Origin: an uncultured Acetobacteraceae bacterium
Lineage (GTDB): Bacteria > Pseudomonadota > Alphaproteobacteria > Acetobacterales > Acetobacteraceae
Assembly (NCBI GenBank): GCA_964247685.1
Contig: CAXTVZ010000001.1
Coordinates: 56,800-120,799 of the forward strand
DNA length: 64,000 nucleotides
Direction: 5' to 3'
The translations under genes were made by a program, and so were the position numbers. Numbering within the stretch: position 1 is the stretch's first letter; every line of letters begins with the position of its first letter. The notes beneath the pieces are model-generated. The model was not told the DNA's origin. It worked only from the letters and a program-made list of their open reading frames with translations, and did no database searches. This document shows, piece by piece, positions 3,205 through 61,889 of this stretch.

Positions 3205-3212
3205 GAGTGTTG

Positions 3213-4327: not shown

Positions 4328-4356
4328 TGTTTGCGCGCTTTCCGCGCACAGAGCAA
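4328..4356 (-). promoter_or_regulatory. promoter-like repeat with conserved spacer
   Basis: TTGCTC-tgtgcgcggaaagcgcg-CAAACA, 9 nt upstream of leader box. Confidence 0.5.
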
Positions 4357-4378
4357 GCAGTATCTATGCGCCGAGCAG

Positions 4379-5328: not shown

Positions 5329-5471
5329 CGCCTCTCCCAACCGCTGGCGCAAAAAACGAACGCAGCTCGTTACTTGGTCCGAGCAATCTTGCAATTTCCG
5401 CCCAGTGTTCCACAAGGCAATAGCGCAGCACTTTCAGCACTGAGGCGTCGGCGCGCCGCCTGGAGCACCGT

Positions 5472-6383
5472 ATGTATGCGGCAAGAAGCCCCGTCACCAA
5501 GAGGTCGGGCGTGACGACTGACGCGCCCAAAGACAACAAAAAGTTGGGCCAGTCGCGCCCCGCAAAGCACGGCCTGCGCGCCGATGGTAGGCCGCGCAAG
5601 CGGCCGCGGCCTTACGCTGGCGAGAGCACGCTACCGCCCGATCCGTCCGCTGCGGATGAAGTGCAAGCCGCGTCGCGCGCCCGCTCGTCCGCCGGCGTGT
5701 TCATGGAGACCGAGGTCCGGGCGAGCAGGGTGGTCAAGGCGGAGACGGAGCACGGCCGCTCGGTTCGTCTGCTGGCGGACGACCGCGCCGACCACCGCGT
5801 GCCGTCGATCCGTCGCGAGGTCATCACCGGTGGGCTCGACGCCGACGGAGAGGCAATCACCCTGCGCGCGCCCAGCGTCGAGGACGGAAGCTGGCGAGAC
5901 CCTGACGACACTGTGCCGAACGCCAGCCGCGTGCCGCGCCGGGTGCGCGCCAACCGGCGCGCCAACAACCTGCGCTGGATGCAGAAGCGCGGAGTTGCCC
6001 TGAGCGACGACCACGTGACCGCCGGTGAGCTCTACGAGCAGGACTACGAGACGGCGCACATCGGCAGGTTTCCCGGCGCACCACCGCCGGAAATCCGGGG
6101 CACGCCGGGGCCTGGCGACTATTCGCGGTGCATCGACAAAAGCCGGATGTTCAACGAGGCGGAGGCTGCCGTTGGCCACTTCGGCGCCGACCTGCTGCGC
6201 CACGTCGTGCTCGGCCGCGAGGGATCCGCGCCAGGCGACATCAGCTCGTGGGCGGCCACCAAGCAGGTTGGCGGCAGACAGCTCGACCGCAAGGCGGCCG
6301 TCGGCGTGCTCATCGCCACGCTGGAAATCCTGGTTGGGCACTACGGACGCCGCATCCGCGACAAGCAGAAATCCGAGGCGTAG
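5472..6383 (+). CDS. hypothetical protein, possibly DNA-binding (DUF6456-like, unverified)
   Basis: 303 aa, GGAG 6 nt upstream of ATG, basic N-terminus; RWMQKRGVALSDDHVTAGELYEQDYE and C-terminal LIATLEILVGHYG recall DUF6456-type proteins. Confidence 0.5.
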   Translation: MYAARSPVTKRSGVTTDAPKDNKKLGQSRPAKHGLRADGRPRKRPRPYAGESTLPPDPSAADEVQAASRARSSAGVFMETEVRASRVVKAETEHGRSVRLLADDRADHRVPSIRREVITGGLDADGEAITLRAPSVEDGSWRDPDDTVPNASRVPRRVRANRRANNLRWMQKRGVALSDDHVTAGELYEQDYETAHIGRFPGAPPPEIRGTPGPGDYSRCIDKSRMFNEAEAAVGHFGADLLRHVVLGREGSAPGDISSWAATKQVGGRQLDRKAAVGVLIATLEILVGHYGRRIRDKQKSEA

Positions 6384-6597: not shown

Positions 6598-6850
6598 GCT
6601 CAGTGCATGCCGCCGCCAGACACGGGCGCGCCCACCGGCACGCCAGCGACACGCGCGGTGTTCCACTTGTGGGCGTAGTGGCCGTCGACCTTGATCGCGC
6701 CGTCCTGAACGCTCGGTCGACCGCCGCGACAACGCCTACGGATCGTATCGCTTCTTTCACCGCCCGGTGGCCGCCCAGCAGGCGTAGGTGCGCCTGACCG
6801 GCAGGCGGCGAGAGACAGCGAGGTATTTTGCGGTTTTCGCAAAGAACTGC

Positions 6851-6879
6851 TTGCAACGTGCGCGGAAAGCGCGTAAATC
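6851..6879 (+). promoter_or_regulatory. promoter-like repeat with conserved spacer
   Basis: TTGCAA-cgtgcgcggaaagcgcg-TAAATC, 8 nt upstream of leader box. Confidence 0.5.
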
Positions 6880-6887
6880 AATCTTAC

Positions 6888-6907
6888 GCCAGGGCGACGT
6901 GCCCGGC
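6888..6907 (+). promoter_or_regulatory. leader stem-loop box
   Basis: GCCAGGGCGACGTGCCCGGC, ends 21 nt before ATG 6929. Confidence 0.55.
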
Positions 6908-7201: not shown

Positions 7202-7546
7202 ATGACCTACCAAAGCCCAGTCCAGCTCACGCACGTGATCGCCGCGTTCCAGATGCACCCGACCTTGCACCGGATGGTTGACGCGACCTGCTACTGTTTC
7301 GACAGCGGCCAGCGCTTGTCGGTCTACCTGGCGGACGATGCGGTGTTCGCGGAAGCGGGAACCGGCCTGCTTCCAACCGATGCGGAGGCTGCGTTCATGC
7401 GCGAGGTCGCGGGGCGCACGACATTTCAGCAGCTGCCCGCTCAGCTGCGGCGAGGTAAGCCTGTCGGCCCGCGCGGCCTGGGGGCAATGACGTTTTCTGT
7501 TGCCGCCTCGCCGAAACTGCTTGCTCTGTGCGCGGAAAGCGCGTAG
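7202..7546 (+). CDS. hypothetical protein
   Basis: 114 aa ORF; 3' end reads through the next promoter-like repeat. Confidence 0.55.
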   Translation: MTYQSPVQLTHVIAAFQMHPTLHRMVDATCYCFDSGQRLSVYLADDAVFAEAGTGLLPTDAEAAFMREVAGRTTFQQLPAQLRRGKPVGPRGLGAMTFSVAASPKLLALCAESA

Positions 7547-7549
7547 AAC
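7521..7549 (+). promoter_or_regulatory. promoter-like repeat with conserved spacer
   Basis: TTGCTC-tgtgcgcggaaagcgcg-TAGAAC. Confidence 0.5.
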
Positions 7550-7557
7550 TGAATCAC

Positions 7558-7577
7558 GCCAAGGGAACCGCCCGGGC
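7558..7577 (+). promoter_or_regulatory. leader stem-loop box
   Basis: GCCAAGGGAACCGCCCGGGC, ends 18 nt before ATG 7596. Confidence 0.6.
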
Positions 7578-7595: not shown

Positions 7596-7937
7596 ATGAT
7601 CGTTCACACCGCCACTCTGACTGCCGAGCAGACCGCCAAGCTGACCCGCCTGGCCAACTACGGCACCCGCTACGAGGCAGCGATCGTGCGCGCCGACGGC
7701 ACCAAGGTGCTGCTCGGCTATCTTCGTCGTCACAGCTTTCTCGGCTTGGCCGCAGGAGTTGACGGCCGCGCCCTTCGTGTAGTCGACGCCCTCGGTGACG
7801 CCGGCGTTCTTGTCCGCCACCTTCGCAAAACCATGCGTGTGGCTTTCGTCACCGAGGCCGGGGCAGTGCTGGGCCACGCGGAATTCACCGGCCGCACCGA
7901 GCGCGACGCGATCCGCGAGGGCGAGTTGGTCAACTGA
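7596..7937 (+). CDS. hypothetical protein
   Basis: 113 aa; GGAGAG upstream; internal start of ORF 7500..7937. Confidence 0.6.
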   Translation: MIVHTATLTAEQTAKLTRLANYGTRYEAAIVRADGTKVLLGYLRRHSFLGLAAGVDGRALRVVDALGDAGVLVRHLRKTMRVAFVTEAGAVLGHAEFTGRTERDAIREGELVN

Positions 7938-7956
7938 TCAAAACCAGGAGGAAGAT

Positions 7957-8223
7957 GTGCAGCAACTCAGTAAAGACGCCCAGAGTGTCGCCGTTTGTTT
8001 CTTCGGCTTCATGCCGAAGGTAGAACTCGTTTTTCACCGACCGCGTATTATTCATCCGCGGATGCGGTCAGCGCTGGACGAACTGACCGAAGCTGGTTTG
8101 TTGACGACCGAAGACGATAAGCGCGGGCCAAAGGCGTGGAAGGCAACGCCTGAGCTAACCGCGCTGGCCAAGACGCTTCCGCGTCCTAGGGAGGAAGACA
8201 GCGTTCCCCTGACAACAAAGTAA
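7957..8223 (+). CDS. hypothetical protein
   Basis: GTG 7957 five nt after AGGAGG; lower-GC patch. Confidence 0.5.
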   Translation: MQQLSKDAQSVAVCFFGFMPKVELVFHRPRIIHPRMRSALDELTEAGLLTTEDDKRGPKAWKATPELTALAKTLPRPREEDSVPLTTK

Positions 8224-8275
8224 CCAGCGAGCACAAGCTTGCCTGCATTTGGCAAGCGGCATGGAGCTTCCAACG

Positions 8276-8494
8276 ATGAGCACCACGACAGCAAGTTACG
8301 ACAAAAGGTTTCTACCCTACGCGGAGGCTGCTCTTGGCGCTTACGCTCGGGCGGTCGGTTGGCACGCCGACGCCGGTCCGGACCAGGCCATCGTGGCGTG
8401 CGTCGCCTCGCTTCTTCATTACGCCGCAGCGAATGGCTGCGAGCCGTCGGACATGATCGAGCGAGCGAAGGAAATGTATGACACCGAGGCCTGA
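8276..8494 (+). CDS. hypothetical protein
   Basis: Start uncertain (ATG 8249, 8261 or 8276); GGAG 9 nt before 8276; begins ATGAGCACC like the 32.8-33.6 kb cassette genes. Confidence 0.45.
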   Translation: MSTTTASYDKRFLPYAEAALGAYARAVGWHADAGPDQAIVACVASLLHYAAANGCEPSDMIERAKEMYDTEA

Positions 8495-8507
8495 CCAGCG
8501 TCATCGC

Positions 8508-8536
8508 TTGCTCGGTGCGCGGAAAACGCGTAAGTC
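8508..8536 (+). promoter_or_regulatory. promoter-like repeat with conserved spacer
   Basis: TTGCTC-ggtgcgcggaaaacgcg-TAAGTC. Confidence 0.5.
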
Positions 8537-8544
8537 AATAACCG

Positions 8545-8564
8545 GCCGAGGGGACGTCCCAGGC
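8545..8564 (+). promoter_or_regulatory. leader stem-loop box
   Basis: GCCGAGGGGACGTCCCAGGC, ends 20 nt before ATG 8585. Confidence 0.6.
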
Positions 8565-8584
8565 CGCACCCAAGGACGAAGCTG

Positions 8585-8755
8585 ATGGCACGAGCCGCCC
8601 CAACCCTGCACGCCGAGTTGCGCAACAGACGACGCACGCCGCAGCCGTTCAACGTGTCGTATCGCCGCGTCGGCGGCCTGCGCCTGCTCAAGCTGGGACG
8701 ACTGACGATCAGCTTTTCCGTCTCGCGTTCGTTCAAGCCCATCAAGGGCACCTAG
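8585..8755 (+). CDS. small basic protein (below ORF-track cutoff)
   Basis: 56 aa MARAAPTLHAELRNRRRTPQPFNVSYRRVGGLRLLKLGRLTISFSV...; high GC3; positioned exactly behind promoter repeat and leader box. Confidence 0.45.
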   Translation: MARAAPTLHAELRNRRRTPQPFNVSYRRVGGLRLLKLGRLTISFSVSRSFKPIKGT

Positions 8756-8770
8756 AGCCAACCGCCACCG

Positions 8771-8791
8771 GCCAAGGGCGCTGTGCCCAGG
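8771..8791 (+). promoter_or_regulatory. leader stem-loop box (intercistronic)
   Basis: GCCAAGGGCGCTGTGCCCAGG, ends 20 nt before ATG 8812. Confidence 0.55.
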
Positions 8792-8811
8792 TCAAGCACC
8801 AGGATGCCGTC

Positions 8812-9195
8812 ATGAACCGCCACCGCTATATCCGCGCCACGCATGAAACCGAGGACAGCGAGACCGGCGCGGTCACCAGCTGCACCGAGACCCGGATCCA
8901 CTACACCTACCTCGCTGGCTGCGCCGCCCAGGTCTATGGGCCGGCCGAGCGCTGCCACCCGGCCGAGGCGGCCGAGGTCGAACTCGACTACGTCGAACGC
9001 GAGCAAGAGGGCAGGTGGGTGCGCCTGGACCTCAGCCGCGCCGAGGCGGCCTCGCCCGAAAGCATGCACGACCACGCCCTGCAGGTGTGGGCGGAGTACT
9101 ACCTCGCCGAGCACACCGACGAGGTGACCGAGCGTGAGGCTGACCTAGCCGCCGAAGCGCGGGAATACGCTGCGGAGTGCCGCGCCGACCGATAG
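8812..9195 (+). CDS. hypothetical acidic protein
   Basis: 127 aa ORF. Confidence 0.55.
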   Translation: MNRHRYIRATHETEDSETGAVTSCTETRIHYTYLAGCAAQVYGPAERCHPAEAAEVELDYVEREQEGRWVRLDLSRAEAASPESMHDHALQVWAEYYLAEHTDEVTEREADLAAEAREYAAECRADR

Positions 9196-21396: not shown

Positions 21397-21600
21397 ATGA
21401 GCGATCAACCCGACAACCTAGTTCTGGTCCACCTGCGTCGGATCGACGCCAACGTCCAGCGGATCGCTGACGACATGAGCGACATCAAGGTGCGCGTCAC
21501 GAACATGGAGGCCGGCGTTGCCGGTGTGAACCGCCGCCTCGACCGGGTGGAGGCTGACGTCGATACGATCAAACGACGCCTGGATCTGGTCCAGGCATAG
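21397..21600 (+). CDS. coiled-coil protein
   Basis: 67 aa, AGAGGAGG upstream. Confidence 0.55.
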   Translation: MSDQPDNLVLVHLRRIDANVQRIADDMSDIKVRVTNMEAGVAGVNRRLDRVEADVDTIKRRLDLVQA

Positions 21601-30512: not shown

Positions 30513-30746
30513 CTAACGTTTCGGCGTCCACCCAGTCGGCGCTTCTGGCCGAGGAATCGGCGCCCACAAAACAGGATCAGATATCGCTTCATCGGCCGCA
30601 TCTCGCCATTCTTTTTCGCCAAACCCATTCTCGGAAAACCAAGCAATCGTCGTAAAGCCCATAGCCCAAGGATGCTTTTCGTCGCACCGATAGACCAGAA
30701 CTTCCTCGCCTTCCGGCGCACATTCGATTGGCTTCCACTCAACCAT
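30513..30746 (-). CDS. DUF551-like protein
   Basis: MVEWKPIECAPEGEEVLVY...VLWAPIPRP. Confidence 0.5.
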   Translation of the reverse strand: MVEWKPIECAPEGEEVLVYRCDEKHPWAMGFTTIAWFSENGFGEKEWRDAADEAISDPVLWAPIPRPEAPTGWTPKR

Positions 30747-30972: not shown

Positions 30973-31305
30973 CTAAGCCGCCATTGACACACATTCGAAC
31001 CGGCCTCTGCCGTGGTTCTTGCCGCCGCATGAGCACTCGCAATTCATCACGCGGCCCTGAGCGTTGATGCAGCGAGCATCGCACTCGTGCTTACTGGGGT
31101 TCGACTTGTAGGTTACGGAACGCGTCACTGGCAGAGGCTCACGGCTTCCGGCCGCGTAGCCCACCATCATGCTCCAGCCATCGTAGCGGCGCCCCTGGGT
31201 GCCAGGGAAGAGGGCCGCGAACTCGGCATTTCGCATCCCAGTCAAGTTGCCCACCAGAAGGACCGTCTCGCCGCCAAAATCGCTGTAGCTCTTCACGTTG
31301 GCCAT
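30973..31305 (-). CDS. hypothetical protein with C-terminal Cys cluster
   Basis: KHECDARCINAQGRVMNCECSCGGKNHG. Confidence 0.55.
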   Translation of the reverse strand: MANVKSYSDFGGETVLLVGNLTGMRNAEFAALFPGTQGRRYDGWSMMVGYAAGSREPLPVTRSVTYKSNPSKHECDARCINAQGRVMNCECSCGGKNHGRGRFECVSMAA

Positions 31306-31338
31306 TTGGTGTCTCCGTCTCGATGACTCCTTTATGAC

Positions 31339-31393
31339 ACCACAATGTTAAACGGTCAACAACAATCTTGCACACCGTGAACGCTTGTGTCAT
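31339..31393. promoter_or_regulatory. divergent control region with long-range inverted repeat
   Basis: TTATGACAC ... GTGTCATAA arms about 35 nt apart, enclosing CAACAacaaTCTTGCA. Confidence 0.35.
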
Positions 31394-31402
31394 AAGGTGG
31401 CC

Positions 31403-31573
31403 ATGCCCTACGACGCAGCAGTGACCAAAGATGTCTTCCTCGGGATGCGGTTGGAGTCGGACGAGAGCGCAGCCCTCAAGGCGGCTGCGAAAGACGACGA
31501 CCGGGCCATGAGCGCGATGGCGCGGAAGATCATCGTGGATTGGCTCAAGGCGAACGGGCGGCTGCCGAAGTGA
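31403..31573 (+). CDS. ribbon-helix-helix (CopG/Arc-like) protein
   Basis: FLGMRLESDESAALKAAAKDDDRAMSAMARKIIVDWL; AAGGTGG upstream. Confidence 0.55.
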   Translation: MPYDAAVTKDVFLGMRLESDESAALKAAAKDDDRAMSAMARKIIVDWLKANGRLPK

Positions 31574-31641
31574 GCAGAGTCACCGAAACCTGTCCCGTAA
31601 CCTCTGACTCGGCTGTAAACGGGCGAGAGGGAAAACACAAC

Positions 31642-32256
31642 GTGCAAGCGCCGCAGGAACCTCGCCAGCACCTAGTCGGCTACGCGCGGGTCTCAATGAG
31701 CGATCAGAACACCCAGCGCCAGATAGACGAGCTGAAGGCTTTCGGGGTGGCCGAGAGCGACATTTTCCAGGACACGAAATCCGGCAAGACGATGAACCGG
31801 CCGGGCTGGAAGAACCTCTGGCGGGACGTGCGCGAGGGCGACCTGCTCGTGGTCCATGCGCTCGACCGCCTCGGCCGCGACATGCTGGAGGTGATGGCGA
31901 TCCTGGACGAGCTGGATCGCCGCAAGGTCCAGGTGAAGATACTCACCTTCGGGCTCGACACCCGCACGCCGATGGGCCGGTTCGTCCTGAGCATCTTGCT
32001 TTCTGTGGCCGAACTGGAGCGCAACATGATCGTGGAACGCACCCGGCACGGCCTGGCGAAGGCGCGGGAGCGCGGGCGGATCGGCGGGCGGCCCGAACGG
32101 CTAAGCGAGGCGAAGGTGCTGGAGGCCATCCGGCGCGAGAAGGCCGGCGAGTTTCTAAGCGACATCGCCAAGGAGTTCGGGGTGGGCCGGAACACTCTCT
32201 ACAAGCGGCGGAAAGACACGATGGACGCGCAGCGAGCCAAGGAGAAAGCAAAGTGA
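31642..32256 (+). CDS. serine recombinase, invertase/resolvase type with C-terminal HTH
   Basis: LVGYARVSMSDQNTQRQ, VVHALDRLGRD, ERNMIVERTRHGLAKARERGRIGGRP, SDIAKEFGVGRNTLYKRR; GTG start after GAGAGGGA. Confidence 0.9.
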   Translation: MQAPQEPRQHLVGYARVSMSDQNTQRQIDELKAFGVAESDIFQDTKSGKTMNRPGWKNLWRDVREGDLLVVHALDRLGRDMLEVMAILDELDRRKVQVKILTFGLDTRTPMGRFVLSILLSVAELERNMIVERTRHGLAKARERGRIGGRPERLSEAKVLEAIRREKAGEFLSDIAKEFGVGRNTLYKRRKDTMDAQRAKEKAK

Positions 32257-32531
32257 GCACCGAACCCACTGCCCAGCAAACCCAAGTTGACCCGCCTAGA
32301 GTCGTTGCCGACTGGCGTCCGTTTCCTGAAACGGCTCCAAGAGATCGCCGCATTTTAGTTCGAGGTCGTTGGCGTCCGCATGATTTCCGGGCGGGTGGAG
32401 AGACCTGCATCGAAATCGCAAGCTGGTCTACCGTCATGTCGGACGGTAGTGGCTACCATTGGATGCTTGGCCTAGGCAGCTTGGACCGCTGGAACGTTGA
32501 TTTTACTGAGTGGACGGACTTGCCATCATGA
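32253..32531 (+). CDS. DUF551-like protein, leader-family member a
   Basis: GTGA overlap with recombinase stop; VSTEPTAQQTQ leader; WRPFPETAP...FTEWTDLP. Confidence 0.55.
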   Translation: MSTEPTAQQTQVDPPRVVADWRPFPETAPRDRRILVRGRWRPHDFRAGGETCIEIASWSTVMSDGSGYHWMLGLGSLDRWNVDFTEWTDLPS

Positions 32532-32804
32532 CCGGACCTACTGCCCAACAAACCCCCATTAGCTGCCGATCGCCTGCGGCTAGACTACATTAACAGTCTT
32601 CCGCAACCATTTACTCTCCGCCAATACGGCGACAAGCAAACATGGCCGCTCGAATCAATCGACGTTCAAACCGGAATACTTCGGTTCGACGTGTGCGGCA
32701 AACTTCAGGCCGGGCACATAGGCGACGTTGCCGAGTTCATCGACGCAGAGGGTGTAAGCCACGAACCCGATACCTTCTATTCTGACTACGAGGCTGCACC
32801 ATGA
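32528..32804 (+). pseudogene. leader-family member b, interrupted by a +1 frame change
   Basis: MTGPTAQQTP then stop after 21 codons; the +1 frame continues LAADRLRLDYINSLPQPF...SDYEAAP to TGA 32802-32804; junction at AACCCCCA. Confidence 0.4.
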
Positions 32805-33025
32805 GCACCGAACCGCAAACCCAGATCTTACACCGCCTGCGCGATTGGCCGGATGGCCTTACAGTTGAGGCGGATCAGAAGCGTGCCAAGCTTGCTCAGC
32901 AAGCGGCAGACGAGATTAAGCGACTGCGCGAAGCTTTGACCGAGATAGCGACAGGCAAAGACCGCGAGGGACTTATTGCTGACTTCCCCCGTAAGCGTGC
33001 TCAGGATGCACTAGATGGCCGATGA
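32801..33025 (+). CDS. leader-family member c
   Basis: MSTEPQTQILHRLRDW; ATGA overlap. Confidence 0.5.
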   Translation: MSTEPQTQILHRLRDWPDGLTVEADQKRAKLAQQAADEIKRLREALTEIATGKDREGLIADFPRKRAQDALDGR

Positions 33026-33257
33026 TCTGCCGTCACCGCAAACCCAGATCAGCGACCGTTTGGTGACTTGGACAATAGGAATTGGCCGGGACGGTTCTGT
33101 CTTTGACGACACACAGACGCACGGCAACAGTTTTGCTGATGTATATCGAGGCTTTTTTGCGATTAAAGATGAGCTTGAACGACAGATAAGCGACCGTCGC
33201 AATTGCCCTTATAACCCTATCAATCCGCAACCACCATCGTTCGAGAGGATGACATGA
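33015..33257 (+). CDS. leader-family member d
   Basis: MADDLPSPQTQISDRLVTW. Confidence 0.5.
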   Translation: MADDLPSPQTQISDRLVTWTIGIGRDGSVFDDTQTHGNSFADVYRGFFAIKDELERQISDRRNCPYNPINPQPPSFERMT

Positions 33258-33472
33258 GCACCGAGGGGGAAAACCACGACTGGCGTGCGGCTATAGCTAC
33301 GCCAGAAGCCGCAGAGGCGCGCCGAATAAACGACGGCGCGCTCCGCGGTAGAAGCCCAACCGCAGAAGAGGCTTCGCACGCGGTTCGATGGATGGGCGAA
33401 GTCGGAATACCCGCAGTGCAAACAGCGATGGCCGAAGCCGAAAGCAGAGGGTGCAGCATCTATGAGCTTTGA
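33254..33472 (+). CDS. leader-family member e
   Basis: MSTEGENHDW; ATGA overlap. Confidence 0.5.
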   Translation: MSTEGENHDWRAAIATPEAAEARRINDGALRGRSPTAEEASHAVRWMGEVGIPAVQTAMAEAESRGCSIYEL

Positions 33473-33617
33473 GAAAAACCAGACCGAGCGCGCCAGCACG
33501 TATCTGGAGATCACCTTTTTCTCTCGCACATGGCGCTGGACCGGCTGGGCAGCAACGTGGCTAGTTTGCGCGGTGCCGCTCGGGGTTGCGTTGGTTGTGG
33601 TGAAGTTCGCATCATGA
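33462..33617 (+). CDS. small membrane peptide (below ORF-track cutoff)
   Basis: 51 aa, WTGWAATWLVCAVPLGVALVVV; ATGA overlap with next gene. Confidence 0.45.
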   Translation: MSFEKNQTERASTYLEITFFSRTWRWTGWAATWLVCAVPLGVALVVVKFAS

Positions 33618-33838
33618 GCACCGAACCGCAAACCCAGACCGACGCTATCAACGCCGCCGTCTTGGCTGAGAGAGAACGTATTGCTCAGGCTCTCGAGGAA
33701 GAAGCTAGGACTACACCGTGCCACGAAGACGCTGTTGTCGTCTTAGATTGCGCGCGGTTGGTAAGAGCCAATTTCTCGTATGACGAAGCCGAACGGCTGC
33801 AAAATGCGGCAGAAAAGGAAGCGGCCGATGCCATCTGA
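33614..33838 (+). CDS. leader-family member g
   Basis: MSTEPQTQTDAIN; first 25 nt identical to 32801-32825. Confidence 0.5.
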   Translation: MSTEPQTQTDAINAAVLAERERIAQALEEEARTTPCHEDAVVVLDCARLVRANFSYDEAERLQNAAEKEAADAI

Positions 33839-34076
33839 TCCAATACCGCAACCCCACCTCGAAACGGAGCGGATCACAAACGGCACGCTTAACGCGATTC
33901 TCCTAACCGAGTCTCACGGTCCACCTGAGCCGCCAATGCCGTGGAAGATTTTCGTGCAGGCTTTTGATGAACCTGAGGGCGTGCGGTTCCAATTAAGTGG
34001 ATCGCGCTGGATGACTGCACGTGAGCTGCGAAAGTTTTGTGTTGCCGGAATGGTTTTGTCAGAGCACTACAAATGA
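33828..34076 (+). CDS. leader-family member h
   Basis: MPSDPIPQPHLE. Confidence 0.5.
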   Translation: MPSDPIPQPHLETERITNGTLNAILLTESHGPPEPPMPWKIFVQAFDEPEGVRFQLSGSRWMTARELRKFCVAGMVLSEHYK

Positions 34077-34495
34077 CGATACCGCAAACCCAGAAAACGT
34101 ACTCGCTAGGCGACCTTCGACTGGCCGCCGAGCATGCCGTTGCGGCCGGCGACGATTGCGTGAGCGTAGACGCGAAGGCTTTGCTGGCCCTGTGTCGAAG
34201 CGAAGCATGGGCTCACTCCGCTGTGCTCACGGAGCGCGCACCCATCGCGGCGGTTGAGCCCGCCGGGATGCGCTTGGAGAGCAGCGGCAAGCCCTCTGCG
34301 ACCTTGACCACCAAGGAGAACGCCACCTTTGAAGAGTGGTGCGCCGAGCTGGACCGGGAGAACGCCAAGAACCCTGACAGCCCATACGGTACGGGCAGCT
34401 GCGTCGAAATATGCGGCGCGGAATCGTGGCGCGACTATTACGACATTGGCTACTGTCCCGCCGACGCGCTGTCGGATGACGCCGCACATGCCTGA
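34073..34495 (+). CDS. leader-family member i
   Basis: MTIPQTQKTYSL; ATGA overlap. Confidence 0.5.
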   Translation: MTIPQTQKTYSLGDLRLAAEHAVAAGDDCVSVDAKALLALCRSEAWAHSAVLTERAPIAAVEPAGMRLESSGKPSATLTTKENATFEEWCAELDRENAKNPDSPYGTGSCVEICGAESWRDYYDIGYCPADALSDDAAHA

Positions 34496-34952
34496 CGCGG
34501 CGAAACATTGGATCATCATCCTAGAACCTCATTGTGTTCCGGAGCGCAAAGGGCCGTTTCCGGTAGATATGCTGGCAGCTTTTGTTCGGGAGGTGGGTGT
34601 CTATCGACCGTTCGACACGCGAACCATCGTACTTAGGGCGGACGCCGACTGCGACATTCTACCGCAAGACGGCCAGGAGTTTTTAGATATGCTCGGGCGT
34701 CGCCGGCGTACTGTCGTTCGCCGCCGCCTCGAAAGCGTCACGCGCAAAGGCGGCGAGAAGGTGGCTGCTAGGTTGTCCGGCCGGCTAGTTCGAATTTGGT
34801 CTGGAGAACATGGTGCCTACTGGCGCAAAAACGGCTGCGGTTACACAGACGGAAAGCGCGTGTGGGCCTGGGCGCTGCCGTTTGAGCAGGCGTTCGACAA
34901 GACGAGACATTGCGGGCCGGAGAAGAAGATCGTCTTTGAGGTGGCGCTGTGA
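34488..34952 (+). CDS. hypothetical protein
   Basis: Start ATG 34488 or 34476; 154 aa. Confidence 0.5.
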   Translation: MPDAAKHWIIILEPHCVPERKGPFPVDMLAAFVREVGVYRPFDTRTIVLRADADCDILPQDGQEFLDMLGRRRRTVVRRRLESVTRKGGEKVAARLSGRLVRIWSGEHGAYWRKNGCGYTDGKRVWAWALPFEQAFDKTRHCGPEKKIVFEVAL

Positions 34953-34989: not shown

Positions 34990-35190
34990 ATGACCAAATT
35001 CCTCACTCCCGCGCCTCGCAAGCGCCGCAAGCTGGCAAGCGCCACCCCGCTGGAGCTGTCAGCCTGTACGTTCGTCGCCGCTCTGGCGCGCAACGTGGAC
35101 GAGCAGCGCGGCATTGAAACGGAAAGCGGGACGCCAGAGACGCGGGCGAAGATCGCGGCCGACGTGAAAAAGAGGTTCTTCGATGAGTGA
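34990..35190 (+). CDS. hypothetical protein
   Basis: 66 aa; internal start of ORF 34810..35190. Confidence 0.45.
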   Translation: MTKFLTPAPRKRRKLASATPLELSACTFVAALARNVDEQRGIETESGTPETRAKIAADVKKRFFDE

Positions 35191-35395
35191 TCAACCGAAC
35201 CCGCCCGCTGAGAGCGGACGCCCGGCTTACCAGTTCCGCTGGAGCAACATCGACCTTGAGGACTTTGTCGCGCAGCGGCGATTTGCAGCTGAAGTGTTGC
35301 GCCGGGACGCCGCCATTCTCACGCGGCGCGCTGAACAGATTGAGGAGGAAGCTCGGACTTGGGAAGCGGCGTTCGAGCTAGCCGATGCCCGCTGA
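35183..35395 (+). CDS. hypothetical protein
   Basis: 70 aa; begins MSDQPN like CDS 21397. Confidence 0.5.
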   Translation: MSDQPNPPAESGRPAYQFRWSNIDLEDFVAQRRFAAEVLRRDAAILTRRAEQIEEEARTWEAAFELADAR

Positions 35396-44313: not shown

Positions 44314-47300
44314 GTGCAGCAACTTAACTTTTTTGAGGTGCAGGCGCCGCGCGTCAGCGCCGCAACGCCGCCGGCGGAAAACTTTTCCCTACTCGACTCA
44401 GCCGAGCAAGGCCGCGGCCTGGCAAAGACGTGGAAGGAGCGCGCGGCCGACAACATCGCCGCCATCCGGCTTGCGCAACGCATAGAGGCCGAGTTCCGGC
44501 CCGCAACGCTGGCCGAGTGTGCCCAGCTCATCCGCTTCGTCGGCTTCGGCGCGTCGGACTTGGCAAACAGCCTGTTTCCCACAAAGGCCGGCGCTTTCGG
44601 TCAGGGATGGGAACAGCTGGGCCAGGCGTTGCACGCAGTGGCCGGCCGCGAGGTGACGGCGCTCGCGCGCGCAACGCAGTACGCGCACTTCACCCCGGAA
44701 TACATCGTCACGGCCATGTGGGATGCGGTGCGCCGCTTCGGCTTCGATGGCGGCCGCGTGCTCGAACCAGGCTGCGGCACCGGCCTGTTCCTGGCGCTGG
44801 CGCCAAAAGCCATCGCGCAGGCGTCGGTCTTCGTGGGCATCGAGCGTGATCCGATAACCGCTCGCATCGCGCGGTTGCTGCATCCTTTGGCGCACATCGA
44901 GACGGCTGATTTCGGGCAACGTCACCTGCCGCGCTGCGCCGAGCCGTTCGACCTGGTGATTGGCAACCCGCCGTTCTCCGACCGGACGGTAACGGCCGAC
45001 GACGCCGAGGGTGCCGGCAAGCTCGGGCTGTCGCTGCACGAGTTCTTCATCCTGCGCGCCGTGCGCATGCTGCGGCCTGGCGGGCTCGGTGCCTTTGTCA
45101 CCAGCCGCTACCTCATGGACAAGGGGTCGGATCTTGCCCGCGCGGTGCTGGCCGCCGATGCCGAGCTGCTCGGCGCGATCCGGCTGCCGCGCGGCAGCAT
45201 GCGCGCCGCAGCGGGCACCGACGTGGTGGTCGACCTGCTGTTCCTTCGCCGGCGCGATAAGCGGGGCGCGCACCCGCTGAGCAAGCCCTGGGTCGCGCTT
45301 GGCAGCGTTGCCTGCACCGGCCTGGCGACGAGTTGCACCGTCAACAGCTTCTTCGCCGAGACGCCCGAGGCGGTGCTCGGCAACCATGCCTTTGTCAGCA
45401 GCCAGCACGGGCCGGCCTACACGTGCGCGCCGGAGCCTGGCCTGGACCTGCCGGGCGAGCTCGCGGCCGCTGCCGAGCGTCTAGCGTCCGAGCAGGCGTT
45501 CTGGCCAGCGGACGCCGTGCTGGACGCCGACGAGGCCGACCCCGTGCCCGACGTGAACGTGCGCAGCGTGGCCGACGGAGGCACCCTGCGCGAAGGCTCC
45601 TACTTCGTGGACACGGATCGGCTCTGGCAGATCGTGGACGGCCGCGCGGTGGCGGTGGCGGTCAAGGCGGGCCGCGGCACCGAGGGCATCTTCCAGAGCC
45701 ACGCGGCCATCATCCGCGGCCTCATCCCGATCCGCGACGCGGTGCGCGACGTGCTGCGGGCGCAGGTGCGCAACTCGGCGTCATGGGCGGCCGAAGCGGC
45801 GCGCCTTCGGGGCGCCTACGACGCCTTTGTCAAGAAGCACGGGCCGATCAACCACACAGTGCTGTCCACCACCACGGTCGACGACGTGGTGCGGGTGACA
45901 GACCCGGAGACCGGGGAGGTGCTCAGCGAGACGCTGGAGCAACGCGAGCGCACCACCGCGCGGCGGCCGAACCTCGCGCCGTTTCTCGACGACCCTGACG
46001 TCTGGCTGGTGTCCTCGATTGAGAGCTACGACGTCGACACCGGCATCGCCAAGCCGGGCGCGGTGTTTACCGAGCGGGTCATTCGCCAGCCCACCGAGCC
46101 GGTCATCGCCAGCGCCGCCGACGCCCTGGCGGTGGTGCTCAACGAGGTGGGCCGGGTCGACATCCCGCGCATCGGCGGGCTCATCTTCAAGCCGCCGGCG
46201 GAGGTCATACGCGAGCTCGGCGCCGCCATCTTCGAGGACCCGGAGACGGAGCAGTGGGTCACTGCGGACGCCTATCTGTCCGGCGCGGTGCGCGGCAAGC
46301 TGAAGACCGCGCAACGCGCGGCGGCGGAGGCCGGCGCCCGCTACCAGCGCAACGTCGAGGCGTTGGAGGCCGTGCAGCCGACCGACCTCAAGCCGTCGGA
46401 AATTACCGCTAGGCTGGGCGCGCCGTGGGTGCCCGTGCCGGTCGTCGAGCGCTTCATTCTCGAGGTCATGCGGGTGCGCACGACCGTCCACCACACGCCC
46501 GCCGTGGCGTCGTGGACCGTCGAGCAGCCGCCGTTCAAAGGCAACGCAGCCAGCACGTCGGAGTGGGGCACGCAGCGCCGGCACGCCGGCGACCTGCTGG
46601 AGGACGCGCTGAACGCGTCCATCCCACGAATTTACGACGTCGAGCGCGACAGTTCCGGCAAGGAGATCCGCACTTTCAACGCGGCTGCCACCGAGGCGGC
46701 AAAGGAGAAGCTCGAAAAGATCAAGCGGGCCTTTGAGGCTTGGGTCTGGAAAGAGCCGTCGCGCGCCGACAGGCTGGTTCGGATCTACAACGACGACTAC
46801 AACAACTTGGTGCCGCGCCACTTCGACGGCGCGCACCTGCAGTTGCCCGACGCCAGCGGCATCATCGAGATGCGGCCGCACCAGAAGCGCGGCGTCTGGC
46901 GCGTCATCACTGCGGGGTCCACCTACCTTGCGCACGCCGTGGGTGCCGGCAAAACCTTCCTGATGGCCGCGGCGCTGATGGAGCAGAAGCGGCTCGGCCT
47001 TGTCAGCAAGCCCATGATGGTCGTGCCCGGGCACTGCCTGGCGCAAGCCGCGCGCGAGTTCCTGATGCTCTACCCGACGGCGCGCATCCTGGTCGCCGAC
47101 GAGACCAACTTCGTCAAGGAAAAGCGCCAGCGCTTCATCGCGCGCGCGGCCACCGGCAACTGGGACTGCATCATCCTGACGCACTCCGCCTTCAAGTTCA
47201 TCCCCGCGCCCGGCGCGTTCGAACGCAGCATGATCAACGAGCAGCTGGCCAACTACGAGGAGCTCCTGCTGTCGGTCGACGAAAACGACCGCGTGGGCCG

Positions 47301-49374
47301 CAAGCGGTTGGAGCGGCTGAAAGAGGGCTTCGAGGAACGCCTTGACCGGCTGTCCTCGCGCAAGGACGACGTGGTCACCATTGCCGAAATCGGCGTGGAT
47401 CAGATCGTCGTCGACGAGGCGCAGGAGTTCCGCAAGCTCTCGTTCGCAACCAACATGGGCACGCTGCGCGGCATCGATCCGGACGGCTCGCAGCGCGCTT
47501 GGGACCTCTACGTCAAGGTCAAGTTCATCGCCCAGTCGAACCCGACGCGGCCGCTGATCATGGCGTCCGGCACGCCTATCACGAACACCATGGGCGAGCT
47601 GTTCACCCTCATGCGCTTCATGCACGAGGTAGGGCTGATCGACCGGCTGGTGCACCAGTTCGACGCCTGGGCGTCGACCTTCGGCGAGACGCGCACCGAT
47701 CTCGAGCTGCAGCCATCGGGCCTCTACAAGCCGGCCACCAGGTTCAGCCAGTTCGTCAATGTGGCAGAGCTGATCGCGATGTTCCGCGCGGTGGCCGACG
47801 TCGTGCTGAAAGACGACCTGCGCGGCTACATGAAGCTGCCGCGCATCAAAGGCGGCAAGCGGCAAATCCTGACGTTCAAGCCGACGCCCGCCTTCCGCGC
47901 CTACCAGAAGGAACTCGCGCACCGCATCGCCCTGATCGAGCAGCGCAAGGGGATGCCGAAAAAAGGCCAGGACATCATCCTGTCGGTCATCGGCGACGGC
48001 CGGCACGCGGCGCTGGACATGCGCTTCACCGGCCCGGACGCCGAGAACGAGCCCGAAAACAAGCTGAACGGGCTCATCGCGAACGCCTTTAAAATTTGGC
48101 AGGAGACCAGCGGCTACCGCTACACAAACCCGGCAACCGGGGAAGCCTATCCGCTGCCCGGTGCCACGCAGATGATCTTTTCCGACCTCGGCACTCTGAA
48201 CGCCGTGGCAACGCGTGGCTTCTCCGCCTACGCGTGGATCCGCACCGAGCTGATCCGGCTCGGCGTGCCGGCGGAGCAGATCGCCATCATCCACCACTAC
48301 AAGCGCGCGGCCGAGAAGCTGGCGCTTTTTGCCGACCTTAACAGCGGTCGAAAGCGCTTCGTCATCGGTTCGAGCGAAAAGATGGGCACCGGCGTCAACG
48401 CGCAGCAACGTCTGATCGCGATGCACCACCTTGACGTTCCCTGGCTGCCGTCCTGGATCGAACAGCGGGAAGGGCGCATCGACCGGCAGGGCAACCAGAA
48501 CGACGAAATCGGCCTGTTTGCCTATGCGACGACTGGCAGCATGGACGCGCCAATGTGGCAGTTCAACGAGAGAAAGGCGCGTTTCATTGCCGCGGCGCTG
48601 TCGGGCGACCGCTCCATCCGCCGGCTCGACGACGTCGGCGACACCGTCGACCAGTTTGCTTTTGCCAAGGCGCTATCGAGCGGCGACGCGCGCCTGATGC
48701 AGAAGGCCGGGCTCGAAGCTGAGCTTGCCCGCCTGCATCGGCTGAAGGACTCGCACTTCGACGACCAATACAACGTGCGTCAGCGCGTCGACGGCGCGCG
48801 CGGCACGATCGTGCGCTGTCAAAAGCGCATTCCGCTGCTGGAGATGGACCTCGACAATCGCGTGGACACCCGCGCGGACCTGTTCCAGATGACGGTTGAC
48901 GGCAAGGCCTACACCGAGCGCAAGGCGGCCGGCGCCGCCTTGCTGGCGTTCGCGCGCGCCCGCAAAGCCGGCATGCAGGACGGCGAGTGGACTATCGCGC
49001 AGCTGGGCGGGTTCGCCGTGAAGCTGGACAGCGAAGTCCTTGTCGAGCGGTCGCGCGGCAAGGAGGTCGCCCGGTCGTGGTTCGCCCACCTTTGGATCAT
49101 GTTTAGCGCCGAGCCGACGAGGGTATCGGCGGACGTGGCGGCCCTAGAGCCGCTCGGCTTGGTCGCGCGGCTGGAGAACGCCGTGCGTGCTCTCGACTAC
49201 GACCTGACAACGACGCAGACGCGCCTGGCGGACGCCGAGAAGGACCTCCGGGAGTTCGAGGCGATGCTGCAGGACACCTTCGAGTTTCAGGACGAACTCG
49301 ATGCCAAAACCGACGAGCTGTTGACCCTCAACGAGTCCCTGGCGCGCAACACGGAAGCCCCTGTTTTGCTCTAG
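44314..49374 (+). CDS. N6-adenine DNA methyltransferase fused to SNF2-family helicase (DarB-like giant protein)
   Basis: LEPGCGTGLFLA, VIGNPPFSD; AVGAGKTFLM, VVDEAQEFRK, MASGTPITNTMGELF, QREGRIDRQGN; 1686 aa. Confidence 0.9.
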   Translation: MQQLNFFEVQAPRVSAATPPAENFSLLDSAEQGRGLAKTWKERAADNIAAIRLAQRIEAEFRPATLAECAQLIRFVGFGASDLANSLFPTKAGAFGQGWEQLGQALHAVAGREVTALARATQYAHFTPEYIVTAMWDAVRRFGFDGGRVLEPGCGTGLFLALAPKAIAQASVFVGIERDPITARIARLLHPLAHIETADFGQRHLPRCAEPFDLVIGNPPFSDRTVTADDAEGAGKLGLSLHEFFILRAVRMLRPGGLGAFVTSRYLMDKGSDLARAVLAADAELLGAIRLPRGSMRAAAGTDVVVDLLFLRRRDKRGAHPLSKPWVALGSVACTGLATSCTVNSFFAETPEAVLGNHAFVSSQHGPAYTCAPEPGLDLPGELAAAAERLASEQAFWPADAVLDADEADPVPDVNVRSVADGGTLREGSYFVDTDRLWQIVDGRAVAVAVKAGRGTEGIFQSHAAIIRGLIPIRDAVRDVLRAQVRNSASWAAEAARLRGAYDAFVKKHGPINHTVLSTTTVDDVVRVTDPETGEVLSETLEQRERTTARRPNLAPFLDDPDVWLVSSIESYDVDTGIAKPGAVFTERVIRQPTEPVIASAADALAVVLNEVGRVDIPRIGGLIFKPPAEVIRELGAAIFEDPETEQWVTADAYLSGAVRGKLKTAQRAAAEAGARYQRNVEALEAVQPTDLKPSEITARLGAPWVPVPVVERFILEVMRVRTTVHHTPAVASWTVEQPPFKGNAASTSEWGTQRRHAGDLLEDALNASIPRIYDVERDSSGKEIRTFNAAATEAAKEKLEKIKRAFEAWVWKEPSRADRLVRIYNDDYNNLVPRHFDGAHLQLPDASGIIEMRPHQKRGVWRVITAGSTYLAHAVGAGKTFLMAAALMEQKRLGLVSKPMMVVPGHCLAQAAREFLMLYPTARILVADETNFVKEKRQRFIARAATGNWDCIILTHSAFKFIPAPGAFERSMINEQLANYEELLLSVDENDRVGRKRLERLKEGFEERLDRLSSRKDDVVTIAEIGVDQIVVDEAQEFRKLSFATNMGTLRGIDPDGSQRAWDLYVKVKFIAQSNPTRPLIMASGTPITNTMGELFTLMRFMHEVGLIDRLVHQFDAWASTFGETRTDLELQPSGLYKPATRFSQFVNVAELIAMFRAVADVVLKDDLRGYMKLPRIKGGKRQILTFKPTPAFRAYQKELAHRIALIEQRKGMPKKGQDIILSVIGDGRHAALDMRFTGPDAENEPENKLNGLIANAFKIWQETSGYRYTNPATGEAYPLPGATQMIFSDLGTLNAVATRGFSAYAWIRTELIRLGVPAEQIAIIHHYKRAAEKLALFADLNSGRKRFVIGSSEKMGTGVNAQQRLIAMHHLDVPWLPSWIEQREGRIDRQGNQNDEIGLFAYATTGSMDAPMWQFNERKARFIAAALSGDRSIRRLDDVGDTVDQFAFAKALSSGDARLMQKAGLEAELARLHRLKDSHFDDQYNVRQRVDGARGTIVRCQKRIPLLEMDLDNRVDTRADLFQMTVDGKAYTERKAAGAALLAFARARKAGMQDGEWTIAQLGGFAVKLDSEVLVERSRGKEVARSWFAHLWIMFSAEPTRVSADVAALEPLGLVARLENAVRALDYDLTTTQTRLADAEKDLREFEAMLQDTFEFQDELDAKTDELLTLNESLARNTEAPVLL

Positions 49375-49379
49375 TGACA

Positions 49380-49392
49380 CAACAAAATGTTG
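49380..49392. promoter_or_regulatory. CAACA-N3-TGTTG palindrome
   Basis: gacaCAACAaaaTGTTGcg; TTGCGT-N17-CATATT with spacer CTCGCCC-ggt-GGGCGAG. Confidence 0.55.
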
Positions 49393-49461
49393 CGTCTCGC
49401 CCGGTGGGCGAGCATATTATCGACACACCGAGGCAACATCGCCAGGTGCAGCGCGGAGCGA

Positions 49462-49584
49462 ATGATGACGGCAGGATCCCCCGGCGAAAACCCCAATCCC
49501 CCGTATCAGGACGACCCGGTGAGGGTGCTGCTGCGCGTCGCCTTCATCTTCACCGTCTGCAACTACATCTGGCTGCACCTCTGA
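49462..49584 (+). CDS. small hydrophobic-tail peptide
   Basis: 40 aa; GGAG upstream; stop overlaps next start (TGATG). Confidence 0.35.
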   Translation: MMTAGSPGENPNPPYQDDPVRVLLRVAFIFTVCNYIWLHL

Positions 49585-50480
49585 TGGCGGCAGGCCTGTT
49601 GGCACACCGAAGCGGTGCGCAGGCGTCGTTGCTCGGGCCGGTCGCGTCGTCGCGCCGCCCGTCAGCCGAGGGCACCGCCGGCGCGGGCCTGAACCCGGAT
49701 CTTGACCAGTACTTCACCCCGACATGGGTGGCCGAGGCGCTGGTTGAGCAGTTTTTCCCAACGCTGGCGACCGATTTCGTTGTGGACGCCGGGTGCGGGC
49801 ACGGCGCGTTTTTGGGCGCCCTTCCGGCCAGCGTGGACGCGCTCGGGGTTGAGATCGACCCCGAGGCCGCCGCCATCGCTAGGCGCAACACCGGGCGACT
49901 GGTCCTGACGGGCGACTTTTTGGACGTCGAGCTCACGCGCCAGCCCACCATGATCATCGGCAACCCGCCGTTCCGCGAGGCGATCCTCGACGCGATGCTG
50001 GCGCGCGCGCACCTGCTGCTGCCGCGGGGCGGCCAGGTCGGGTGGGTGCTGCCGGCCTACGTCTTTCAGACGCCGTCGCGCGTGCTGGCGATGGCCGAAC
50101 GGTGGAGCATCGAGAGCAAGGCCATGCTGCCGCGCACGCTCTACCGCGGGCTGAAGGAGCCGCTCGCCTTCATGGTGTTCACCAAGGACGGCCGCAGGCT
50201 GCTGCAGGGCTTCGCCCTCTATCGGGAGGCGGCCGAGGTGGCCGCGCTGAGCGAGGCCTACCGGGTGGTGCTGTCTCGCGCGCCGCGCTCGGCGTGGGTG
50301 CGGTGCGTGGCCGATGCGGTGCGCACGATGGGCGGCACGGCGACGCTGCCCCAGATCTACGCCGAGATCGGCGGCCGCCGGCCGTCGCAGACGACCTGGT
50401 GGCGCGAGAAGGTCCGGCAGGTCGCGCAGGCACACCTCGTCCGGCTCGACAGCGGCACTTACGGGTTGGCGGCGAGGTGA
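49584..50480 (+). CDS. N6-adenine DNA methyltransferase (NPPF type) with C-terminal wHTH-like tail
   Basis: DQYFTPTWVA, VVDAGCGHGAF, IIGNPPFRE. Confidence 0.75.
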   Translation: MAAGLLAHRSGAQASLLGPVASSRRPSAEGTAGAGLNPDLDQYFTPTWVAEALVEQFFPTLATDFVVDAGCGHGAFLGALPASVDALGVEIDPEAAAIARRNTGRLVLTGDFLDVELTRQPTMIIGNPPFREAILDAMLARAHLLLPRGGQVGWVLPAYVFQTPSRVLAMAERWSIESKAMLPRTLYRGLKEPLAFMVFTKDGRRLLQGFALYREAAEVAALSEAYRVVLSRAPRSAWVRCVADAVRTMGGTATLPQIYAEIGGRRPSQTTWWREKVRQVAQAHLVRLDSGTYGLAAR

Positions 50481-61448: not shown

Positions 61449-61889
61449 ATGGACGAAACACCGGAAACGCTGCCCGCCAGAAAGCCGCGACGCGGACGAC
61501 CGAAGTTCGAGCCCACCCCGGCGCAACGAGTGACAGCGCTCGCGTTGAAAGCCGCTGGCTCGCCGCACGCCGTGATCGCGTCGATCATGGAAATTCCGCT
61601 GCGGACCTTCGACCGCCATTTCAAGCGGGAGATCGCGCAAGGCCACGAGGAGGTCACCGCGCGCATTGCGCACGGCCTGATTGGACGGGCGCTAGGCGGA
61701 GACAACGACGCGGCCAAGTTCTTCCTGCGAACCCGTGCCGGCTGGACGACGCGCACGGAGGTGACAGGCGCCGAGGGCGGTCCGATTGACATCCGCAACA
61801 TCTCCACTGATCAGCTCACTGCAGCGCTTATCGCCTTCGCAGAGAGCGACGGTGCTGGCGAGGATGGCGCAGGAGCTGAGGAGGCGTAA
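61449..61889 (+). CDS. terminase small subunit-like protein
   Basis: RGRPKFEPTPAQR, HTH segment, AAKFFLRTRAGW; directly upstream of large terminase. Confidence 0.6.
   Translation: MDETPETLPARKPRRGRPKFEPTPAQRVTALALKAAGSPHAVIASIMEIPLRTFDRHFKREIAQGHEEVTARIAHGLIGRALGGDNDAAKFFLRTRAGWTTRTEVTGAEGGPIDIRNISTDQLTAALIAFAESDGAGEDGAGAEEA

Follow-up and report, generated by a model that had tools for sequence, protein, structure and literature searches.

A 64,000-nucleotide (nt) stretch of DNA from an uncultured Acetobacteraceae bacterium (contig CAXTVZ010000001.1, positions 56,800 to 120,799; this whole stretch is called the window below) contains, on its + strand, an operon in which a ribbon-helix-helix (RHH) gene and a small serine recombinase are followed by overlapping mini-genes, designated a-j (32253-34952). 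Nine of these, a-i (32253-34495), form an array, and the majority of the nine open with variants of one short leader. The repeated leader is best read as a start module at the 5′ ends of the genes of a hypervariable accessory operon that follows a Pin-like small serine recombinase, and operons of this type are best placed in a clade of alphaproteobacterial-type phage and plasmid elements. As to its function, we tentatively favor a portable, cis-acting, in-frame start module that would serve translation and would also provide frame-preserving crossover points. The conserved core is CCGCAAACCCAGA in the window and A(A/T)TACCACGGCC, GAAACCACGGCC or GACAACCA(A/G)ACGA in relatives, encoding [Q/E/N/K]-T-[T/Q/S].

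The leader is repeated far beyond chance

The genes of the array overlap as GTGA at 32253 and as ATGA at 32528, 32801, 33254, 33614 and 34073, by 11 nt at 33015, 33462 and 33828, and by 8 nt at the start of gene j. The eight leaders listed by an initial annotation of this DNA all read as described there and at the coordinates given; the version in gene e is weak, gene f, which was not among the eight, also has a weak version, and gene j has none. Two segments that each span a gene junction, 32796-32825 and 33609-33638, agree at 29 of 30 nt and contain the 25-nt identity (32801-32825 and 33614-33638) given in the initial annotation. The 14-mer ACCGCAAACCCAGA occurs four times in the window, at 32812, 33035, 33625 and 34081, always in frame and on the + strand only, in agreement with the earlier statement that all copies are direct repeats; of the two further positions reported for this core, 34081 was exact and 33036 was one off. 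Allowing up to two mismatches, 0.43 occurrences of ACCGCAAACCCAGA are expected, and none of 100 shuffles reached four. ATGAGCACCGAACC occurs three times, and the longest exact run common to positions +4 to +39 of the array genes is 22 nt versus about 8 nt in controls made by shuffling or taken from gene interiors (0 of 500). The repetition noted in the initial annotation is thus confirmed and lies far beyond chance. No promoter-like sites were found within the array and terminator-like sites were at chance level; avoidance of the motif inside genes was not significant.

Gene b had been listed as an ordinary leader-led open reading frame (ORF), which proved incorrect. The frame from its ATG at 32528 ends after 21 codons (TAA, 32591-32593), and the body lies in the +1 frame from a run of five C at 32553-32557; this is the frame of gene a, opening right after the TGA of a. 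Gene b may be a pseudogene, or the shift may come from a homopolymer error in the assembly, from a +1 slip or from readthrough out of gene a.

The leader is attached to unrelated bodies

After removal of the leaders, all Smith-Waterman z-scores among the array proteins were below 2 except that of the pair h-i (3.3), and neither DNA-level nor cross-frame comparison detected similarity among the bodies, in keeping with the earlier impression that the proteins are unrelated past the leader. When the genes were aligned, similarity ended with the leader and full-length paralogy was not found; lacking similar bodies, the genes are not paralogues of the ordinary kind. In a set of ~15 billion proteins, each of genes c, e, f, g, h and i forms a singleton cluster, and the six occur on a single 125,943-bp contig, and gene c had no homologue but itself in 5.8 billion proteins. 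The sole homologue of gene a is P0007 on the JGI contig L029 (71% identity), which begins MADITSTAPVRIKAQW, and gene a begins VSTEPTAQQTQVDPPRVVADW. DNA homology between the two extends from window position 32313, just past the leader, to the stop codon, and all neighboring genes differ. A gene elsewhere in the window, 30513-30746(-), begins MVEWKPIECAPEGEEVLV with no leader ahead and weakly resembles the start of the gene a body, W-x-P-x-x-E-x-AP...ILV (E=0.015, single comparison).

Two widespread small-protein families (residues 6-54 and 78-140), found elsewhere as separate genes of 57-107 aa, are fused in gene i; the pattern of the N-domain is YSLGDLR...LLALCRSEAWAH and that of the C-domain (phrog_519) is F.EWC.ELD...YG...TG..CWR.YY.DGYSP.DAL.ED. 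Homologues of both halves align from just past the leader and have different N-termini, some of which resemble one another; one of these homologues, P0012 (MSDQPQTTIT) in L031, immediately follows a serine recombinase, which it overlaps by ATGA, and another, P0022 in L032, begins MSDEPTITHH. Judging from the sequence, the second fused gene may once have started at the ATG inside gene i at residue 66. AlphaFold predicts two helical domains for gene i, the leader (residues 1-11) being coil that precedes helix 1, and the predicted fold had no match in the PDB. The leader therefore lies outside the folded bodies and is attached to bodies that are unrelated to one another. A degenerate MSTEPQTQ pattern had no match in viral contigs and six single matches in 185,579 genomes, all in unrelated proteins and about the number expected by chance. 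Phage and plasmid DNA similarity searches gave no match, nor did searches of viral contigs with gene j and with a 546-aa ATPase.

Each related element carries its own version of the leader

Relatives were sampled by searching with the recombinase and taking the contigs of its nearest relatives (50-69% identity), so that the sampling is anchored on the recombinase; a metagenome scan with a recombinase profile yielded relatives of at most 47% identity only, which were used as controls. In most of the relatives the recombinase is followed by overlapping small genes whose starts share an element-specific leader. In L038 (recombinase 56% identical to that of the window, 60% in the initial search) ATGAGTGAAACCACGGCC occurs twice (MSETTA), in genes that both encode 69 aa and have unrelated bodies, and is accompanied by the starts MPRPETTA, MPNPEITA and MSDPQTT. 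L039 (51%) has GACAACCAAACGAG in three genes (M-T/N-D-N-Q-T-S), L035 (64%) has MQADPEKQTSQ, MTDKTTT and VTDQTT, L122 (50%) has ENTTQ, SQTTK (on a 379-aa T4-type RNA ligase) and NQTTR, and the Asaia locus L123 (50%) has VTDNQTTT and VTDTKTTD. L121 (52%) is syntenic with the window, its divergent operon holding a 53%-identical homologue of the window gene 30973-31305(-). Sixteen overlapping genes stand behind its recombinase, 14 of them with A(A/T)T/GAA-ACCACG(GCC) or a near variant at +6, +12 or +15, and a fifteenth begins MTTP; ACCACGGC has eight copies in L121, all on the + strand and all within the array, versus 0.76 expected.

The longest runs shared among starts are 22 nt in the window and 15 nt in L038 and L039, versus 5-9 nt, equal to the interior control, behind Pin-like recombinases of at most 45% identity (28 loci). 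The pattern [Q/E/N/K]-T-[T/Q/S] is present within residues 2-12 in 32 of 49 array genes versus 4 of 76 other genes of the same loci and 0 of 375 interior windows. The arrays of different elements have almost no bodies in common, and the close pairs L039/L040 and L035/L036 are identical in sequence. One locus, L125, has a recombinase of the clade and no array. Each element thus has its own homogenised leader version, and the leader is specific to the array operon. RecT and Gp157 genes lie ~0.5-3 kb from the recombinase in L038 and L122. Beside or within the arrays of these loci, two genes are recognizable as counter-defence genes: L121 has, in its divergent operon, a member of the Tad3 (anti-Thoeris) family (5363-5674(-)), and L122 has the RNA ligase, which is of T4 Rnl1 type (7763-8902; leader MSDSQTTKH).

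Conservation reaches synonymous sites

The four 14-mers use the same codons, CCG CAA ACC CAG, plus the following A, and the third-position A of the codon before them is kept for three different amino acids (GAA, TCA, ATA). Of 13 L121 genes, 12 use ACC for the first Thr of the motif, a codon with a share of 28% in gene interiors, and the flanks are unrelated. From +4 to +36 the composition is 29% A, 38% C, 21% G and 11.5% T, versus 21.5, 27, 32 and 20% inside genes; G and T are depleted at all three positions of codons 2-12, and NAA is preferred over NAG among Gln, Glu and Lys codons (p=0.002). AAACC is found in 18 of 42 starts versus 3 of 315 interior windows and, after removal of duplicates, in 12 starts versus 3.4 expected. 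Since synonymous sites are conserved while the flanks diverge, a nucleotide-level element is indicated. Toward a constraint on codons or peptide point the in-frame placement of the motif, which has no exception, and the T-T theme, which survives changes of Thr codons between elements. In-frame placement is also expected from the common descent of grafted modules, since only multiple-of-three indels would survive.

A possible portable start module and its alternatives

From this anatomy we infer an effect on translation and a role in recombination. Each cistron opens with a stop-start overlap, and behind it comes a short in-frame stretch, A/C-rich and G/U-poor, that holds the core. Acting in cis, via the mRNA or the first codons, the module would supply every coupled cistron with a working context for initiation and early elongation, whatever body is attached. 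Short-homology recombination within leaders could then delete, duplicate or exchange bodies with reading frames unbroken; such crossovers would be frame-preserving because an identical in-frame stretch stands at every gene start. RecT-type annealing is a candidate mechanism, RecT being encoded within ~3 kb of the recombinase in two relatives, and recombination of this kind would hold leaders uniform in each element and make arrays hypervariable from one element to the next. Copying or conversion at gene starts is shown by the 30-nt identity of the junctions and by leaders that are uniform within and different between elements. The recombinase is a conserved neighbor, not a demonstrated actor.

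Of the three meanings offered in the initial annotation, a translation element fits best, given the synonymous conservation, the position at +6 to +27 and the A/C-rich composition; the ordinary openness of these starts and the lack of leaders on other overlapping genes count against it. The suggestion that the leaders are homology blocks for cassette swapping stands in part, with the junction identity, the homogenised leaders and the homology of gene a beginning at the leader end in its favor; the accompanying idea of help from the recombinase found no support, as the sites lack dyad symmetry and have no inverted copies. Of the peptide tag, the in-frame, N-terminal, operon-specific and unstructured character stands; it leaves the synonymous conservation unexplained and comes without a T4-type cleavage motif.

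Array starts in the window are weakly structured (-10.6 kcal/mol versus -17.2 for other starts and -16.0 for interior windows). Several observations weigh against the portable start module. Array starts of the relatives do not differ in this respect from other starts (-12.4 versus -13.1 kcal/mol, p=0.31), both kinds being more open than interiors. The other overlapping genes of the window have no A/C-rich starts, and the divergent operon of L121 lacks the motif. With leader starts normal rather than exceptional, restriction to one operon needs a further reason, and a generic ribosome-level need fails to explain it. The distance of the module from the start codon varies from +6 to +27. The 6-12 nt cores of L121 are too short for homologous recombination to maintain, and with their diverged flanks they must be kept by selection, not by homology-driven exchange. 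No two close relatives in the sample differ by leader-bounded indels, L039 and L040 being identical. The [QENK]-T-[TQS] pattern was defined post hoc, after the data had been seen, and copies within one element are non-independent, which inflates p-values. Two narrower proposals were dropped, that the leader compensates for gene overlap, as overlapping genes elsewhere in the window do without an A/C-rich start, and that it makes the initiation region unusually open, as this is not so in the relatives (p=0.31).

An N-terminal peptide tag would impose a common fate, such as capsid packaging, rapid turnover or one shared partner, on diverse accessory or anti-defence proteins. It would account for a motif that is always in frame and N-terminal, for its restriction to one operon, as expected of a class tag, for the predicted unstructured tail ahead of the fold and for the persistence of [QENK]-T-[TQS] across elements with differing Thr codons (ACC ACG, ACG ACC, ACG ACG, ACC ACC). 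Anti-defence-like neighbors are present (Tad3 in the divergent operon of L121 and the leader-bearing RNA ligase in L122), and the T4 internal proteins offer a precedent (PMC3012670). We nevertheless consider a tag unlikely, for it does not predict conserved synonymous sites or a flanking third position conserved across different amino acids, the conserved peptide amounts to 3-4 low-complexity residues at a variable distance from Met1, orthologous bodies elsewhere have unrelated N-termini, no consistent protease motif follows the leader, and the region of the operon, early or accessory in type, is ~27 kb away from the terminase gene. The T4 prohead protease cleaves at (L/I)-x-E at the end of the tag; this motif is not present in the array leaders, where S-T-E occurs in four copies only, at residues 2-4. 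Conservation at the nucleotide level would also follow if the leader were a cis operator for a trans-acting factor, either a T4 RegA-type RNA-binding repressor or activator or a small RNA, encoded by the element or the host and switching all cistrons together. Strand specificity, position in the initiation region, restriction to one operon and element-specific versions fit a co-evolving operator-factor pair, and C/A-rich elements are known small-RNA targets (PMC3879156). This reading is distinctly improbable in our view: beyond the trivial antisense strand the 64-kb window has no complementary partner, no Rfam match was obtained, the elements have no conserved candidate for an RNA-binding protein (L035, L038 and L122 lack the RHH gene, and the small gene of L121 is unrelated to RHH), and the strictness of the in-frame placement would be expected only from common descent.

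The leaders might instead be sites at which the serine recombinase captures, excises, inserts or reorders accessory (anti-defence) genes by in-frame crossover. The layout of recombinase and then array is kept in L035, L038, L039, L121, L122, L123 and L031, shared leaders were seen only with recombinases at least 54% identical (in a comparison that included the 28 distant loci), the arrays are hypervariable, and the most similar recombinase pairs (window-L035, L039-L123) have the most similar leaders. Shared ancestry gives the same pairing, however, and the association of recombinase and array is partly built in, as the sampling was anchored on the recombinase. Leaders lack dyad symmetry and have no inverted partner in the window or L121, a serine-recombinase site is longer than the conserved cores (6-14 nt), the codon composition of the recombinase is native and that of the array is not, leader-like starts occur away from any recombinase (L029; L038 at 514, 1448 and 1684; window at 21397 and 35183), and L125 has the clade recombinase with no array, which together make such a platform very unlikely. 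Finally, the leaders could be functionless, left by diverged paralogues or arising as a compositional coincidence. Polar, T/S/Q/P-rich N-termini are said to be common in high-GC bacteria, and MSTEPQTQ turns up in unrelated proteins about as often as chance predicts. This view is largely refuted and we give it hardly any credence, as bodies that share nothing are joined to 25-30 identical nt, the repeats exceed shuffles and interior controls, and independent elements show the pattern again, which neighboring operons and control loci lack.

The accessory and anti-defence regions of phages change very rapidly, and little is understood of how incoming genes are inserted and brought to expression. 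Here a start module is better conserved than any gene that it heads, is uniform within each element and different between elements, and marks one operon behind one recombinase clade. A portable module for translation and recombination would, if correct, explain how unrelated genes are swapped into a coupled operon with expression intact, and would supply a sequence by which hypervariable islands of this kind could be located. If the leader is a peptide tag or a recombinase site instead, it would represent a new targeting signal or a new cassette system; the latter would be a previously unknown, serine-recombinase-run functional counterpart of integrons in alphaproteobacterial phages and plasmids.

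Locus layout and other features of the window

The first two genes of the operon are as initially annotated, the RHH gene by its match to phrog_3431 and the recombinase by its Resolvase and HTH_7 domains. The low GC content ascribed to the whole island held for genes a-h (0.49-0.59 at third codon positions, GC3) but the RHH gene and the recombinase, at 0.84, are like the rest of the window, so that the recombinase and the array are unlike one recently imported unit. An alternative recombinase GTG at 31570 overlaps the RHH stop codon (GTGA); the additional segment, 31570-31641, would add the T-rich N-terminus VSRVTETCPVTSD, and its coding sequence, GTGAGCA...CACCGAAACC, resembles the gene a leader (GTGAGCACCGAACCC).

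Features of the array locus in the window
Feature	Position	Strand	Remarks
Divergent intergenic region	31306..31402	.	Likely promoter and operator of the operon, judged from sequence; inverted repeat TTATGACAC...GTGTCATAA at 31323-31340 and 31387-31404, ending at the RHH start codon, probably an operator for the RHH protein
RHH (Arc-like) gene	31403..31573	+	First gene of the operon; phrog_3431, E=2e-4; GC3 0.84
Small serine recombinase, 204 aa	31642..32256	+	Resolvase + HTH_7; GTG 31642 in source annotation; P0052 100% identical
Gene a, 92 aa	32253..32531	+	GTG start; GTGA overlap with recombinase stop; leader VSTEPTAQQTQ
Gene b, frameshifted	32528..32804	+	Leader frame MTGPTAQQTP
Junction/leader repeat copy 1	32796..32825	+	GCACCATGAGCACCGAACCGCAAACCCAGA; covers stop of b and start of c
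Gene c, 74 aa	32801..33025	+	Leader MSTEPQTQ
Gene d, 80 aa	33015..33257	+	Leader MADDLPSPQTQ; 14-mer core 33035-33048
Gene e, 72 aa	33254..33472	+	Degenerate leader MSTEGENH (ATGAGCACCGA shared, GAAAACCAC core)
Gene f, 51 aa	33462..33617	+	Weak leader MSFEKNQTE (AAAAACCAGACCGA); C-terminal half hydrophobic
Junction/leader repeat copy 2	33609..33638	+	GCATCATGAGCACCGAACCGCAAACCCAGA; 29/30 nt same as copy 1
Gene g, 74 aa	33614..33838	+	Leader MSTEPQTQ
Gene h, 82 aa	33828..34076	+	Degenerate leader MPSDPIPQPH (ATACCGCAACCCCA)
Gene i, 140 aa	34073..34495	+	Leader MTIPQTQ; 14-mer core 34081-34094
Gene j, 154 aa	34488..34952	+	Next cistron, no leader; leader-bearing run ends here
Downstream small gene	35183..35395	+	Leader-like start MSDQPNPP; compare P0012 (MSDQPQTT), directly behind recombinase in L031

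Another small gene with an MSDQP start like that at 35183-35395 lies at 21397-21600 (MSDQPDNL). The window is phage-like: its large terminase subunit (61786-63294) has ~50% identity to the subunits of Limnohabitans, Caulobacter and Bordetella BPP-1 phages, and it also encodes DNA methylases and numerous small proteins. A 1686-aa ORF (44314-49374) joins an N6-adenine methylase domain (Eco57I-like) to SNF2/ResIII helicase domains and is followed by a methylase-like gene (49374-50480). A separate family of 30-48 nt repeats with the core GCGCGCTTTCCGCGCAC...GAGCAAGC occurs in both orientations at 3197-3244, 4330-4364, 6846-6894, 7513-7565 and 8506-8533, a few kb from a second serine recombinase (421-1203), and the pair 4334-4364 and 7513-7543 is 97% complementary; from their sequence, these repeats may serve as operators or as sites of inversion.

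Comparison with known systems

The recombinase shares with Hin, Gin and Pin its small size, the resolvase catalytic domain and a C-terminal helix-turn-helix, and as in these systems and in integrons a site-specific recombinase adjoins variable coding segments, here a promoterless ORF array. Palindromes of the hix/gix type (AAACCNNGGTTT-like, ~26 bp, inverted half-sites around a 2-bp core) were not found, and inverted leader copies were absent from the window and L121, all copies being on the + strand. Unlike integrons, the operon has a serine rather than a tyrosine recombinase, no attC-like hairpin and no inverted repeats at gene ends, and in contrast to both invertase and integron systems its cassettes overlap by ATGA. 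Lacking these defining features, the leader array belongs to neither the invertase-site nor the integron family. Likenesses to N-terminal ClpX degrons (lambda O, Dps), the N-x-T sequon, Chi, a parS half-site and the downstream box could be drawn, and we make no claim of them. We found no description of this leader or of this type of recombinase-headed array.

For repeat-mediated shuffling of ORFan genes the closest analogy is offered by the PeSL cassettes of T4-type hyperplastic regions, intergenic units of a sigma-70 promoter and a stem-loop terminator beside ORFans whose repeats have been proposed to mediate gene gain, loss and exchange through recombination between copies (PMC2839356, PMC4122927). 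In the array, too, repeats flank ORFan genes in a hypervariable region; unlike PeSL units, they lie inside coding starts, in frame, and carry no promoter- or terminator-like signals. The only informative indel case for this comparison is that of gene a and L029, in which homology runs from the leader end to the stop codon. At the RNA level the closest analogy is with C/A-rich (ACA-type) sequences near ribosome-binding sites, which are documented translational enhancers (PMC3879156). The array element resembles them in being short, C/A-rich and G-poor, in lying next to the start codon and in its nucleotide-level conservation. The documented enhancers lie mostly upstream of the start codon of single enterobacterial genes (PMC3879156), whereas the array element, whose enhancer activity is putative, lies downstream, in frame, on many cistrons of one operon and in element-specific versions.

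The closest analogy in logic is the capsid targeting sequence of T4, the only feature shared by the internal proteins, which are diverse defence inhibitors (PMC3012670). There, as in the array, a short N-terminal sequence is common to otherwise unrelated neighboring proteins, and genes for diverse, fast-evolving accessory or anti-defence proteins stand side by side. The array leader differs in having no sequence relation to the T4 tag, in belonging to a coupled operon behind a serine recombinase far from head genes, and in conservation that reaches synonymous sites. The shared 5′ sequence of the T4 internal-protein genes could also act as a crossover point, as we propose for the leaders of the array.

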